This document shows positions 3,165 through 39,720 of a stretch of 39,720 nucleotides of DNA, in pieces. The translations under genes and the position numbers were made by a program. The stretch lies in sequence record PZ618370.1. One strand, written 5' to 3'. This DNA comes from a phage. Within the stretch, counting starts at the first letter, position 1, and each line of letters starts with the position of its first letter. The notes under the pieces are model-generated. The model was not told where the DNA came from. It saw only the letters and a list, made by a program, of their open reading frames with translations, and made no database searches.

Positions 3165-3490
3165 TGAACAAGGCATACGGGATTAATCTGGTACACTCTA
3201 TGGACGCAGACCTTAATCTGCTTTCAGCACTGGCTACGGGCTACCGTCACGGGACCTCAAGTCACACCATTCGTCAACAGCAGGAGCGCGACCGGGTGCT
3301 ACAAGTAAGACTCCGGGCTGAGGGCCATAAGTCCGAGCTGATGTGTCTGGCGTATGGTGGACGACCAATCACCGACGATGGTAAACTTCTGGTCTCAGGC
3401 TGGAAGGCGATAGACCAACGGTCAACCATCAAGCACACGACTCGCGGTGACTTCAGTCATCTTCACGCTAACCCTCTGATATGCAAGTAA
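3164..3490 (+). CDS. hypothetical early protein (108 aa)
   Basis: ORF with SD GGAG; no recognisable motif; no T7 counterpart between 0.7 and gene 1. Confidence 0.5.
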   Translation: MNKAYGINLVHSMDADLNLLSALATGYRHGTSSHTIRQQQERDRVLQVRLRAEGHKSELMCLAYGGRPITDDGKLLVSGWKAIDQRSTIKHTTRGDFSHLHANPLICK

Positions 3491-3495
3491 TTCTG

Positions 3496-3518
3496 ACTTA
3501 ACTATCACTATAGGACTC
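3496..3518 (+). promoter_or_regulatory. phage RNAP promoter (ACTTAACTATCACTATA-GGACT), upstream of the RNAP gene
   Basis: 15/17 match to the promoter family consensus; +1 G at 3513; initiating GGA rather than GGGA. Confidence 0.6.
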
Positions 3519-3587
3519 AAGGTCTAAGACTCCAAGTGAAAGACCAAAGAGACTTTAAGTGAAAGACTAATAACAAGGACTTTAAGT
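3519..3587 (+). promoter_or_regulatory. repeat-rich leader of gene 1 (AAGTGAAAGAC x2, GACTTTAAGT x2); possible RNase III/R1-like site
   Basis: Direct repeats at 3534-3544/3557-3567 and 3551-3560/3578-3587; begins with GACTCAAGGTC shared with the RNase III-like family. Confidence 0.3.
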
Positions 3588-6269
3588 ATGAGCGTCATCT
3601 CTATTGACAAACACGACTTCTCTGACGTGTCGAATGCCATTGAGCCATTTAACCTGCTGGCTGACCACTACGGGCAAGACCTTGCAGTCAAGCAGCTTCA
3701 GCTTGAGCATGAGGCATACACTGAAGGCGAGCGACGTTTCATCAAGAACCTTGAGCGCCAGACTGAGCGCGGGGAACTGGCAGACAATCAGGTCGCCAAG
3801 CCTTTGATGCAGACTCTGGTCCCTAAGATTGCGCAAGCCGTCAAGGAGTGGCACGAAGGAAAAGACGGGAAGCTGTCAACCTCTCGCCCAAGCGTAGCGT
3901 TTACCATGCTGAGCACTGATGAGAAGGCTGTCAAAGACCGCTCTCTGCTCATCTCCTGTGGGTCTGCTGCGGTTATCATACTGAAGGTCATCCTCTCCAA
4001 GCTGGTCAAGCCTGAAGGGATACCGATTACACCGATGGCCTCAGCGATAGGCCGCACACTTGAAGATGAAATCCGCTTCGGTCGCATTCGTGACAAGGAG
4101 CGGGAGCACTTCAAGAAGGCGATAGCTGAGAACCTGAACAAGCGAGCCGGGGCATCCTACAAGAAAGCCTACATGCAAGCGGTTGAAACCTCCATGCTGG
4201 AGCAGGGTCAACTGGAAGATGCGTGGGGAAATTGGAGTCCTACCGAGGCGGTACACGTTGGCATCAAGATGCTTGAGATTGTCATCCAGTCTACACAACT
4301 TGTCGAGCTTAAGCGTTATGGTGCTGGCAATGCATCGGCTGACGTTGAGATGGTCCACCTGTCAGACTTCTGGGTAAAGAAGATGGCACAACGTGGATTC
4401 AGCCTCGCGGGTATCGCGCCAGTATATCAACCTTGCGTAGTACCACCTAAGCCGTGGACTGGTGTCGTGGGTGGTGGGTATTGGGCCAAAGGTCGCAGAC
4501 CGTTGCCGCTGATTCGATTAGGGTCTAAGTCTGCGGTGGCACGTTACGAAGACGTGTACATGCCTGAAGTCTACGACGCTGTGAACATCATTCAGAATAC
4601 ACCTTGGAAAGTGAACAAGAAGGTTCTGGACGTGGTGAACATGGTCGAGAAGCTGAACAACACACCTATTAAAGACATCCCGCAAATGGAACCACTGAAG
4701 CCTGAGGACTATGCAGGTGAGACTGAAGAGGAACTCAAGGCATGGAAGAAAGCTGCTGCTGGTATCTATCGTCGCGAGAAGGCCCGAAAGTCACGCAGAT
4801 TGTCACTGAGCTTTATCGTTAACCAAGCGAACAAGTTTTCTCAGTTTAAGGCCATCTGGTTTCCGTACAACATGGATTGGCGAGGTCGCGTCTACGCTGT
4901 ACCGATGTTCAACCCTCAGGGTAACGACATGCAAAAAGGCCTCCTGACTCTTGCGGTCGGCAAGCCTATTGGTTCCGATGGCTTCAAATGGCTGAAGGTA
5001 CACGGTGCAAACTGTGCGGGTGTAGATAAAGTAACCTTCGAGGAGCGCATTAAGTGGGTGGAAGACAACCATGACAACATCATGGCTACCGCTAAAGCAC
5101 CGATGGATAGCATTGAGTGGTGGGGCAAGTTAGGCTCCCCGTTCTGCTTCCTTGCGTTCTGCTTCGAGTATGCTGGCGTAATGCATCACGGATTGTCTTA
5201 CTCATGCTCGCTGCCGATAGCGTTCGATGGGTCATGCTCTGGGATTCAGCACTTCAGCGCGATGCTTCGTGACCACATCGGTGGACATGCAGTAAACCTG
5301 ACGCCTTCCGGTAAGGTCCAAGACATCTACCGCATCGTGTCTGACCGCATTGAGGAGGAACTTAAAGTCCTGCTGGTTAACGGTACGGACAACGAGATGG
5401 TGACTCAAGAGGACAAGAAAACAGGTGAGATTACCGAGCGTCTTAAGCTGGGGACACGAGAGCTTGCGCGCCAGTGGCTTACCTATGGTATGTCACGAGA
5501 GGTCACTAAGCGTTCGGTCATGACTCTGGCATACGGGTCGAAAGAGTATGGATTCGCAGACCAAGTGTACGAGGATATCGTGATGCCAGCGATTGACTCA
5601 GGGTCTGGCGCTATGTTCACCGAGCCAAGCCAAGCATCTCGCTTCATGGCTAAGATGATTTGGGAAGCTGTTAGTGTGACCGTAGTTGCTGCGGTTGATG
5701 CGATGAAGTGGCTTCAAGGTGCTGCCAAGCTGCTGGCTGCTGAAGTGAGTGACAAGAACACAGGCGAAATCCTGAAGCCGTGCCTTCCTGTACATTGGGT
5801 CACACCCGATGGTTTCCCGGTCTGGCAGGAATACCGAAAGAAAGATACCACTCGTCTGAACCTGATGTTCTTAGGGTCATTCAACCTTCAGCCTACCGTC
5901 AACAGAGGCACGAAGAAAGAGTTGGACAAGCACAAGCAGGAGTCAGGCATTAGCCCGAACTTCGTCCACTCACAAGATGGTAGCCACCTCCGCAAGACTG
6001 TAGTCCACACGCACCGCAAGTATGGCGTGATGTCCTTCGCAGTGATTCACGATAGCTTCGGGACCATCCCGGCTGACGCTGAGTATCTGTTCCGTGGCGT
6101 CCGTGAGACGATGGTAGAGACCTACCGCGACAACGATGTGCTGCTTGACTTCTACGAGCAGTTTGAATACCAGCTTCACGAGAGCCAGCGCGACAAGTTG
6201 CCTGAGCTTCCGAAGAAAGGTAAACTGAATATCGAAGACATCTTGTCTTCAGACTTTGCATTTGCTTAA
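3588..6269 (+). CDS. 1: single-subunit DNA-directed RNA polymerase (T7 gp1 family, 893 aa)
   Basis: Full-length collinear similarity to T7 RNAP as recalled (SREVTKRSVMTLAYGSKE, HWVTPDGFPVWQEY, NFVHSQDGSHLRKTVV, IHDSFGTIPADA, C-terminal FAFA). Confidence 0.97.
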   Translation: MSVISIDKHDFSDVSNAIEPFNLLADHYGQDLAVKQLQLEHEAYTEGERRFIKNLERQTERGELADNQVAKPLMQTLVPKIAQAVKEWHEGKDGKLSTSRPSVAFTMLSTDEKAVKDRSLLISCGSAAVIILKVILSKLVKPEGIPITPMASAIGRTLEDEIRFGRIRDKEREHFKKAIAENLNKRAGASYKKAYMQAVETSMLEQGQLEDAWGNWSPTEAVHVGIKMLEIVIQSTQLVELKRYGAGNASADVEMVHLSDFWVKKMAQRGFSLAGIAPVYQPCVVPPKPWTGVVGGGYWAKGRRPLPLIRLGSKSAVARYEDVYMPEVYDAVNIIQNTPWKVNKKVLDVVNMVEKLNNTPIKDIPQMEPLKPEDYAGETEEELKAWKKAAAGIYRREKARKSRRLSLSFIVNQANKFSQFKAIWFPYNMDWRGRVYAVPMFNPQGNDMQKGLLTLAVGKPIGSDGFKWLKVHGANCAGVDKVTFEERIKWVEDNHDNIMATAKAPMDSIEWWGKLGSPFCFLAFCFEYAGVMHHGLSYSCSLPIAFDGSCSGIQHFSAMLRDHIGGHAVNLTPSGKVQDIYRIVSDRIEEELKVLLVNGTDNEMVTQEDKKTGEITERLKLGTRELARQWLTYGMSREVTKRSVMTLAYGSKEYGFADQVYEDIVMPAIDSGSGAMFTEPSQASRFMAKMIWEAVSVTVVAAVDAMKWLQGAAKLLAAEVSDKNTGEILKPCLPVHWVTPDGFPVWQEYRKKDTTRLNLMFLGSFNLQPTVNRGTKKELDKHKQESGISPNFVHSQDGSHLRKTVVHTHRKYGVMSFAVIHDSFGTIPADAEYLFRGVRETMVETYRDNDVLLDFYEQFEYQLHESQRDKLPELPKKGKLNIEDILSSDFAFA

Positions 6270-6281
6270 CAGGAGATAGTT

Positions 6282-6482
6282 ATGAAATTTGCACACAAGC
6301 AGACTGGCGTTAATGGTGGGACTCAAATCGTGACCGTAACAGAACACAACGGGAAGGGTCTGGTGAAGACCACGGTCATCCCCACCGAGATGTCAAAGCA
6401 GCTTAACGTCCCGTTCAAGTGGCTGGTTAAGCAGGTTGAGCAGACACACGAGCAAGCTCTTAAAGAGGCGGCAACCAAATGA
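6282..6482 (+). CDS. hypothetical protein (66 aa)
   Basis: ORF with SD AGGAG; lies between gene 1 and the phi1.1 promoter where T7 has no gene (T3-like phages carry extra genes here). Confidence 0.5.
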   Translation: MKFAHKQTGVNGGTQIVTVTEHNGKGLVKTTVIPTEMSKQLNVPFKWLVKQVEQTHEQALKEAATK

Positions 6483-6560: not shown

Positions 6561-7040
6561 ATGTTTGGTAAGTCAAAACTCAAAGCACAAATCAAAGAGT
6601 TGAGCATGAAGGCGGCATACTTGGAGCGAGTAGTAATAGTCATGGATAAGGACAACGAGAGGCTGAAGGTTAAACTTGCTGAATCAGAGCGTAAGCGCCT
6701 AACACCACCAGCGGCTGTATTTAGCAAGCGTATGGTAGGCATCAAGTTCAAGGCACTGTTCAACGGGATGTACCAACCGACTGAGTTCAAGACTGGACCG
6801 GGTAACTGCGGTAAGAACGTTAAGCACTTCACAACATCGAAGACTGAGCGCACTATTACCATTCACCAGCACCACGTACACGGGTCTCAGAAAGACTTTG
6901 AGTATCGACTGAGCGACATCGACGGTCGAATCCAGTATGACTACGAGCTGGTTAAGGTCTATGGTGAGGAGGCTGAACAGGAACGTATAAACCAAGACTA
7001 CCGCAACAGACAGCGCTTACACCCTAAACTATCACTATAG
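6561..7040 (+). CDS. hypothetical protein (159 aa, N-terminal coiled-coil-like segment, His-rich centre)
   Basis: ORF with SD GAGG; stop codon TAG lies inside the phi1.1 promoter core; no confident homology. Confidence 0.55.
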   Translation: MFGKSKLKAQIKELSMKAAYLERVVIVMDKDNERLKVKLAESERKRLTPPAAVFSKRMVGIKFKALFNGMYQPTEFKTGPGNCGKNVKHFTTSKTERTITIHQHHVHGSQKDFEYRLSDIDGRIQYDYELVKVYGEEAEQERINQDYRNRQRLHPKLSL

Positions 7041-7045
7041 GATTA
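7023..7045 (+). promoter_or_regulatory. phage RNAP promoter (phi1.1-like)
   Basis: CCTAAACTATCACTATA-GGATT; +1 G at 7040. Confidence 0.8.
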
Positions 7046-7087
7046 GACTCAAGGTCATGACTAAAGTCGTGGCCTTCATGATTAACC
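7041..7087 (+). promoter_or_regulatory. RNase III-type processing hairpin (R1.1-like)
   Basis: Conserved element TAGACTCAAGGTCAT...GTGGCCTTCATGATTA; 5' AAGGTCAT can pair with 3' GTGGCCTT (including G-U pairs); same element before genes 5 and 18.5. Confidence 0.5.
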
Positions 7088-7116
7088 CTAACGTAAACTA
7101 CTGGAGATTCAACCAT

Positions 7117-8698: not shown

Positions 8699-8731
8699 AA
8701 CCCAGTGGTCTTCGGACTGCTGGGTTTCTTT
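8699..8731 (+). terminator. intrinsic terminator (T7 TE-like) after ligase
   Basis: 12-bp stem AACCCAGTGGTC/GACTGCTGGGTT with UUCG tetraloop, followed by a T-rich tract TCTTTGCGTTTGG. Confidence 0.75.
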
Positions 8732-8753
8732 GCGTTTGGGGATCCAGCCTGAC

Positions 8754-11948: not shown

Positions 11949-12164
11949 GTGATTAAACTTATTGAATTTCTTGGTCGTCTGGTGGTGCGTGGCTATCGTC
12001 GTGCTGCGGTTATGGAACGAAAGGTAGCAGAGAAGGCTGCTGAAGGTGCGGCTGATGCTGCTGCTCTGGCTGACAAGCTGACCATCGAGTCACTGGAAGC
12101 TGGTATGAAGGCACGCCAAGCCGACACCAAAGCTGACCAGTTGGCTCAGTTCTTCAAAGCCTAA
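11949..12164 (+). CDS. hypothetical protein (71 aa, Ala/Lys-rich)
   Basis: GTG start after SD AAGGAGA; stop TAA is part of the following promoter. Confidence 0.45.
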   Translation: MIKLIEFLGRLVVRGYRRAAVMERKVAEKAAEGAADAAALADKLTIESLEAGMKARQADTKADQLAQFFKA

Positions 12165-12182
12165 ACTATCACCTTAGGGATG
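12160..12182 (+). promoter_or_regulatory. phage RNAP promoter, divergent (phi4-like)
   Basis: CCTAAACTATCACCTTA-GGGAT; mismatches at -4/-3; +1 G at 12177. Confidence 0.5.
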
Positions 12183-39563: not shown

Positions 39564-39604
39564 TAAGGTCAGTACGTGGATAAAGACTCACTCTACTGAC
39601 CTTA
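39564..39604 (+). repeat. palindromic hairpin element at the inner boundary of the right terminal repeat (11-bp arms TAAGGTCAGTA / TACTGACCTTA, 19-nt spacer)
   Basis: Same arms as 86-126, but the spacer is the reverse complement of the left-end spacer. Confidence 0.8.
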
Positions 39605-39720
39605 GCTACTGTAGTCAAGGACTTTAGGTAACACCATTCAGGCTAACCTATGGTCTACCTACTGATTGGTTCACTGGTCGTCATCCGATGGTCTCAGACC
39701 TACGGTCCTTGACCTACAGT
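39594..39720 (+). repeat. right copy of direct terminal repeat
   Basis: Identical to 116-242; runs to the last base of the window. Confidence 0.8.

Follow-up and report, generated by a model that had tools for sequence, protein, structure and literature searches.

A phage-type promoter directly upstream of the RNA polymerase gene in a Kayfunavirus genome

The gene 1 locus

The window analysed here, a stretch of phage DNA of 39,720 nucleotides, is a Kayfunavirus genome (K1F-like; Autographiviridae, Studiervirinae) with a T7-like gene order throughout, and the 3.5 kb around the promoter described below are 92–94% identical to many Kayfunavirus genomes. Gene 1 (3588–6269, + strand) encodes a T7-type single-subunit RNA polymerase of 893 amino acids, which is 64% identical to T7 RNA polymerase over its full length and carries the specificity loop TRLNLMFLGSFNLQPT. 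The start of gene 1 at 3588 is backed by the N-terminal alignment to T7 RNA polymerase. The genome also encodes a gp0.7-like kinase and homologues of gp2, the host-polymerase inhibitor, and of gp3.5, the lysozyme.

The 97-nt intergenic gap between the preceding ORF and gene 1 (3491–3587) contains a predicted phage promoter of the single-subunit RNA polymerase type at 3496–3518, which covers positions −17 to +6, consists of ACTTAACTATCACTATA followed by GGACTC from +1, and lies on the same strand as gene 1. Setting the start by register with the TATA–G junction of T7 promoters places +1 at G3513, 75 nt before the gene 1 ATG at 3588. A whole-genome search for TTAACTATCACTATAGGA with up to three mismatches returned 10 sites, every one of them on the + strand, whereas shuffled sequence leads one to expect 0.01. 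A weight matrix spanning −17 to +6 gives 11 copies, again all on the + strand, with +1 at 3513, 7040, 8771, 9757, 12177, 18310, 21131, 22130, 26678, 33954 and 39186. The 3513 copy scores 34.0 bits (31.3 bits when excluded from the matrix), within the range of the other copies (31–37 bits, save the weak 12177 copy at 25 bits), and its −17 to −1 sequence is the same as that of the 39186 copy at the phiOR position near the right end. It differs from the strict majority consensus CCTAAACTATCACTATA at −17 and −14, both of which vary across the family. Its core, ATCACTATA followed by GGA, is in register with the T7, K11 and CR8 promoters and shows the CACTATA with GG at the start that defines the T7 group. 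A sequence-only reading of this DNA had proposed a promoter matching 15 of 17 consensus positions, starting at 3513 and lying 75 nt before gene 1, and all of this proved correct, the 15 of 17 when counted against the strict majority consensus. The same reading had suggested that with its GGA start the promoter may be weak, an idea that finds no support: five of the 11 promoters in the genome, the gene 9 and gene 17 ones among them, start with GGA, and so GGA at +1 to +3 is no distinguishing mark of the 3513 copy. A consensus scan for an overlapping sigma-70 promoter like the 'C' promoter of T7 and T3 showed none near 3440–3520.

The weight-matrix scan detected no site above 12 bits to the left of 3513, and hence no phiOL-type copy, and none on the − strand. 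The next phage promoter downstream lies at 7023–7045 (+ strand, +1 at 7040), about 770 nt beyond the end of gene 1, and the genome therefore has no phage promoter directly after gene 1, unlike T7, T3 and K11. Two extra ORFs (6282–6482 and 6561–7040) separate the leader of the 7040 promoter from gene 1, and this leader (7040–7090; GGATTAGACTCAAGGTCATGACTAAAGTCGTGGCCTTCATGATTAACC) reads like the phi1.1A leader of T7 (L034) at 5848–5900 (..ACTCAAGGTCATTCGCAAGAGTGGCCTTTATGATTGACC), which presumably contains the RNase III site R1.1. The weak 25-bit copy at 12160–12182, CCTAAACTATCACCTTA followed by GGGATG, stands ahead of the primase/helicase gene, and it looks deliberately weak because the same off-consensus bases are kept in EcoDS1 and Dev2.

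The remainder of the 75-nt leader (3519–3587, + strand) is A-rich, purine-rich and unstructured and contains repeat motifs; A makes up 43% and purines 64% of 3513–3587. The two copies of an imperfect 21-nt direct repeat (3527–3547 and 3550–3570) are 86% identical. Five motifs of the form GACY(N0-3)AAG, which begin at 3514, 3528, 3542, 3551 and 3578, make up, within 80 nt, the densest such cluster in the genome. Tandem Repeats Finder reported no array in the leader, which holds imperfect direct repeats and motifs only. The direct repeats pointed out in the sequence-only reading are thus real, but the regulatory role suggested for them there is left unsupported by a leader that is unstructured: single-sequence folds are no better than shuffles (z = +0.5 to +0.6), a consensus fold of five divergent relatives has only five pairs at −1.5 kcal/mol, and Rfam gave no match for the leader. 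The promoter precedes a gene with its own ribosome-binding site, a Shine-Dalgarno-like AAGGA at 3575–3579 (+ strand), 8 nt before the ATG and within GGACTTTAAGTATG. A consensus scan found no convincing terminator between the promoter and gene 1. A terminator-like 5-bp hairpin inside gene 1 at 4950–4964 is at chance level, four such sites being found where 5.6 are expected. The class II pause signal ATCTGTT has just two occurrences, at 6085 and 12435, also at chance level. Across the whole genome, GAC[TC]NNAAG is about fourfold over-represented on the + strand (31 against 7.7 expected) and occurs 24 times on the − strand, and ACTCAAGGT recurs shortly after three promoters, at 3515, 7047 and 22147.

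Two host sigma-70-type early promoters are predicted at the left end on the + strand. In EcoDS1, the first annotated 'host RNAP promoter' corresponds by homology to the one at 723–751 (TTGACT-17-CCTAAT; 96% identity to EcoDS1 469–505 plus flanks), and the second to the one at 864–893 (TTGACA-18-TAGTAT). An early terminator (TE) hairpin, AACCCAGTGGTCTTCGGACTGCTGGGTT followed by a T-run, is located after the ligase gene at 8699–8737 (+ strand); it is homologous to the TE annotated in EcoDS1 and probably marks the end of the host-polymerase early unit that holds gene 1. Further to the left, bases 1–96 are the perfect reverse complement of 116–211, with 19 nt between the arms; 116–242 repeats, as judged by eye, the last 127 bases of the window (39594–39720); and the true left genome end, a terminal repeat beginning TCTCACAGTTC..., starts at 298 by homology to EcoDS1. 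These features suggest that the assembly in the record was circularly permuted and begins with a fold-back artefact. At 499–558, barely within the terminal repeat region on the left, a 15-nt unit (AACCATAGGTCCTAC) is repeated four times in tandem and followed by a degenerate copy; related ACCTACAGT motifs lie near these repeats, and in CR8, too, repeats are annotated in a comparable location.

Conservation and co-variation with polymerase specificity

Promoter-type sequence is found upstream of the gene 1 ATG in 24 of 25 close relatives from IMG/VR, the sole exception being a distant contig with 48% polymerase identity, and K1F and Peacock also carry a gene 1 promoter. The comparison of the gene 1 upstream region across related phages, which the sequence-only reading had put forward as a check, was extended to 79 contigs encoding T7-type polymerases by means of an automatic promoter finder, which had no seed in L066 and L082; the promoter of L041 was confirmed by eye. 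All 23 Kayfunavirus/Caroctavirus contigs, whose polymerases are at least 78% identical, keep a promoter of their own type 75–93 nt before the estimated gene 1 start, and in the same 23 contigs the next promoter lies at least 230 nt past the gene 1 end. Among about 55 T7-, T3- and K11-like contigs, none carries a promoter in the 600 nt before gene 1; where promoters were found in them, the nearest upstream copy is usually 1.3–4 kb away (phiOL), and another stands right behind the gene 1 stop codon. Annotation bears the survey out: the records of T7, K11 and T3 show phiOL and a promoter just after gene 1. The contrast is one of position: in K1F-like phages phiOL is missing, as is a promoter directly after gene 1, and the promoter stands just before gene 1 instead. 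Two contigs outside the K1F clade have promoters in the early region, namely a T3-type promoter (CAATCACCCTCACTAAA followed by GGGAAT) about 617 nt upstream of gene 1 in L078 (~9384) and a promoter of its own AAGACTCACTAAAG type about 972 nt upstream in L083 (~9020), so that a promoter upstream of gene 1 is to be met outside the K1F-like phages as well.

GenBank contains 221 phage records with a 116-nt block comprising the promoter and leader, and in 105 of these the identity is at least 99%. Among 23 distinct relatives, conservation within the region is highest at the promoter, which has a mean pairwise identity of 0.92 compared with 0.86–0.88 for gene 1 and 0.59 for the upstream ORF, and 65% of its columns are invariant against 20% of gene 1 third codon positions.

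Whole-genome promoter sets were compared in six genomes representing three specificity types. The specificity bases are AACTATCACT in the window, EcoDS1 and Dev2, AACCCTCACT in GW1 and EcpYZU01, and AAGGTACACT in CR8, and the gene 1 copy bears, at −12 to −8, the specificity bases of its own genome in all six. The specificity loop of the polymerase, which is TRLNLMFLGSFNLQPT in Dev2 as in the window, TRLDLMFLGTFRLQPT in GW1 and EcpYZU01, where the promoter bases are T3-like, and TRIKLMFMG-VQYRPT in CR8, shifts in step with the promoter type (N..N, D..R and K..Q/Y, respectively). The D at the position of T7 N748 and the D..R pattern in the GW1/EcpYZU01 loop are, we take it, as in T3. T7 RNA polymerase carrying the K1F loop activates a promoter with the K1F bases at −12 to −7 by 17-fold and in an orthogonal manner (PMC3458549). 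Since a dead promoter is not expected to track two independent specificity switches, the gene 1 promoter does not appear to be dead, and this co-variation provides, on comparative sequence grounds, what we regard as the strongest argument that the promoter is used. The identity of the promoter, its placement, its conservation and its co-evolution with polymerase specificity are observed directly in these genomes.

The gene 1 copy of the Dev2 subclade, alone among its promoters, has A instead of T at −2 (CACTAAAGG). The substitution is fixed in every member of the subclade seen (L029, which is Dev2, at 2379–2401, and L015, L016, L018–L020 and L023), and the leader in this subclade is 81 nt long with another repeat pattern. 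A at −2 also occurs in five of 17 T7 promoters, all five of which we take to lie in the class II region. The Dev2 variant hints at tuning of the gene 1 promoter; it could reflect either selection for a weaker promoter or relaxed constraint.

Proposed function and alternative explanations

Conservation together with co-variation with polymerase specificity argues strongly for promoter use. The gene 1 promoter is real and, on these strong comparative grounds, appears to be functional: the element at 3496–3518 very likely serves as a promoter for the phage's own T7-type RNA polymerase, with gene 1 as the first gene of the first phage-polymerase unit. Since the promoter lies on the same strand immediately upstream of gene 1 with no convincing terminator in between, a self-transcription loop, that is, positive feedback on polymerase synthesis, is the natural reading. 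The arrangement has the features of an autogene, in that a cognate promoter precedes the polymerase gene on the same strand, no terminator beyond the chance-level hairpin at 4950 precedes the gene end, and an independent source of the first polymerase is predicted in the sigma-70-type promoters at 723 and 864 with TE at about 8700. Because these host promoters and TE are homologous to annotated EcoDS1 elements, host RNA polymerase can presumably make the first gene 1 mRNA.

From these features we infer initiation at G3513 in vivo, feedback and a shut-off of that feedback, which may proceed as follows. Host RNA polymerase would transcribe from the left-end sigma-70 promoters (~723 and ~864) through gene 1 to about 8700, giving rise to the first polymerase molecules. 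The first phage polymerase would then bind ACTTAACTATCACTATA and the adjoining GG at 3496–3515 and initiate at G3513, producing an mRNA whose 75-nt leader is A-rich and unstructured and supplies a ribosome-binding site of its own, the AAGGA that lies 8 nt ahead of the ATG. Polymerase synthesis would thereby become self-reinforcing, and with the gp0.7-like kinase and the gp2-like inhibitor at work it would no longer rely on host polymerase. If T7 is a guide, the gp3.5 lysozyme homologue, together with competing late promoters, might finally limit the loop. A literature search found no transcript 5'-end, in vitro or transcript-mapping data for any Kayfunavirus. The claim of the sequence-only reading that gene 1 of T7 is reached only by host RNA polymerase is too strict: phiOL of T7, at nt 405, points rightward upstream of gene 1, and so T7 gene 1 is not strictly beyond the reach of T7 RNA polymerase. 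The annotated records of K11 and T3 also have phiOL upstream of gene 1.

Alternatively, the promoter and its A/T-rich leader might owe their retention chiefly to a role in replication, as an origin or primer site equivalent to the primary origin of T7/T3, and gene 1 transcription would be a by-product. The region from phi1.1B to gene 1.1 is, we assume, the primary replication origin of T7, and in T3 the position just after gene 1 is annotated as the primary origin; the lack of both phiOL and a promoter directly after gene 1 in K1F-like genomes is in line with such a role. The window at 3504–3590 is collinear with T7 (L034) 5914–6009, from phi1.1B through the gene 1.1 ATG, and its alignment to T7 phi1.1B has a local score of 63, whereas windows taken along T7 at 40-nt steps score no more than 51. 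When the promoter is left out, the best BLAST match of the leader in T7 is 5966–6009 (E = 3e-4), the 14-nt GGACTTTAAGTATG being identical to the gene 1.1 initiation region (T7 5997–6009), and a leader-only profile finds its best match at the place between phi1.1B and gene 1.1 in T7 and in seven T7-type contigs. The individual profile matches are weak, however (E = 0.005–2.4), and come from T7-type genomes closely related to one another; T3-like and K11-like genomes have no profile match at the corresponding place, and most have none at all. Moreover, much of the similarity consists of the common ribosome-binding region and ACTTTAAG motifs and could be convergent. The A+T content of the leader is only 63–65%, compared with 71% in the T7 region and 77% in the T3 region, and is no higher than that of the leader at the phi6.5 position of the same genome, and the one primase-type site in the leader (TGGTC, − strand, at 3546) is near chance for a pentamer in 75 nt. 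A role mainly as an origin thus seems distinctly improbable, and an origin role as such is compatible with use as a polymerase promoter and does not exclude it. A related conjecture, which we hold tentatively and consider unlikely, is that the module after T7 gene 1, made up of a promoter of the phi1.1B type, an A/T-rich leader serving as origin and the ribosome-binding region of gene 1.1, has moved to a position before gene 1 in Kayfunavirus/Caroctavirus, where a single element would act as both primary origin and natural autogene driver and the GACTNNAAG motifs of the leader would be functional parts. If so, the moved module would couple the start of replication to self-amplification of the polymerase.

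Two further explanations would deprive the element of its role as a promoter. The RNase III site R1 precedes gene 1 in T7, and in T3 it is annotated at exactly this intergenic position, which raises the question of whether the element is really an equivalent RNA processing site in the early polycistronic mRNA, its resemblance to a promoter being secondary. A read-through RNA can indeed be drawn as an interrupted hairpin at about 3502–3565, but shuffled sequence folds just as well (z = +0.5 to +0.6), the consensus structure of the five divergent relatives amounts to the five pairs at −1.5 kcal/mol, Rfam gives no match, and the conserved and co-varying bases are the specificity bases of the promoter rather than paired positions. 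An RNase III site of the T3/T7 R1 type, with its stable and conserved interrupted hairpin of about 50 nt, was therefore rejected on the structure tests, and the processing-site explanation is very improbable. A chance match or the decaying relic of a disused promoter can be given hardly any credence: the sole hint of a relic is the A at −2 in the Dev2 subclade, a base that the five T7 promoters share, and against it stand a chance expectation of 0.01, a gene 1 copy that has tracked two independent specificity switches, and a promoter better conserved than the adjacent coding sequence. A promoter serving the phage's own polymerase is the reading that we prefer.

Comparison with known systems

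The promoter element is already known at the annotation level in EcoDS1 and CR8 and is ordinary for its clade, so that the value of the present analysis lies in confirmation and clade-level comparison, not in discovery. What is added is the clean split between clades, the co-variation with specificity, the −2 variant of Dev2 and, tentatively, the link to T7 phi1.1B. K1F-like phages are widely isolated, as the 221 GenBank records with the promoter-leader block illustrate, and, in contrast to the T7 scheme, their polymerase gene appears to form a self-amplifying unit found in nature; they include K1F itself, whose promoter and specificity loop serve synthetic biology. The arrangement matters for models of infection timing and for the engineering of these phages and of their polymerase–promoter pairs.

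The closest counterpart is the 'promoter phi' of EcoDS1 (NC_011042; 2244–2266), which has the identical 23 bp at 75 nt from the gene 1 ATG in the same genus and between the same flanking genes; it shows no substantive difference from the window and is a GenBank feature without an experimental qualifier. K1F (NC_007456) has the same promoter sequence, unannotated, at 2474–2496. The Citrobacter phage CR8 (Caroctavirus, HG818824) carries a 'predicted promoter' of its own type at 3356–3378, 87 nt before gene 1. Like the window, CR8 has no phiOL, and its next promoter lies about 250 nt past the gene 1 end. CR8 differs from the window in promoter specificity (AAGGAAGGTACACTATA) and in the specificity loop, and its leader has diverged, yet retains GACTTTAAG-type repeats.

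In T7 and T3, the first class II promoters and the primary origin (phi1.1A/phi1.1B and phi1.05, respectively) lie just after gene 1, which is thus outside their unit, whereas the 3513 promoter is the first rightward phage promoter in the window genome and has a leader that resembles the phi1.1B-to-gene 1.1 region of T7. The phiOL promoters of T7, T3 and K11 are located 2.5–3 kb upstream of gene 1, before the host promoters. Directly before gene 1, T3 has a minor E. coli C promoter and the RNase III site R1, and the T7 record lists a C promoter. The textbook scheme for T7 treats gene 1 as a purely host-transcribed early gene (PMC5592923).

Promoters close to polymerase genes have been described in more distant phages. 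In Pseudomonas phage LUZ100, ONT-cappable-seq located a promoter, phi1, directly before the polymerase gene, and a two-step model was proposed in which host polymerase acts first and self-amplification follows (PMC10134795). LUZ100 and the window phages are only distantly related and have in common a phage-specific promoter immediately before the polymerase gene. LUZ100 differs in that its start site is experimentally mapped, in its temperate features, and in the gate proposed for its loop, a MarR-like repressor (PMC10134795), nothing similar to which was seen in the part of the window's early region that was examined. In Vibrio phage phiA318, a predicted promoter upstream of the kinase and polymerase genes was read as autoregulation, and gh-1 and K1E were described by the same authors as having no such promoter (PMC4099482). 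The phiA318 promoter differs from that of the window in standing ahead of the kinase gene too, in being no more than a prediction and in coming from another subfamily.

The engineered parallel is the T7 'autogene', in which T7 gene 1 was reportedly placed behind a T7 promoter by Dubendorff and Studier in 1991. Such an autogene is toxic unless restrained and is hard to tolerate in plasmids. It has found later uses (PMC6395690, PMC1500874). As in the window, the polymerase gene of the T7 autogene is driven by its cognate promoter and a priming dose of polymerase is required. The T7 autogene is artificial, whereas the arrangement in the window is natural, fixed across a phage clade and has priming by host promoters built in, and it therefore bears on why a virus stably keeps an arrangement that is so hard to tolerate in plasmids.
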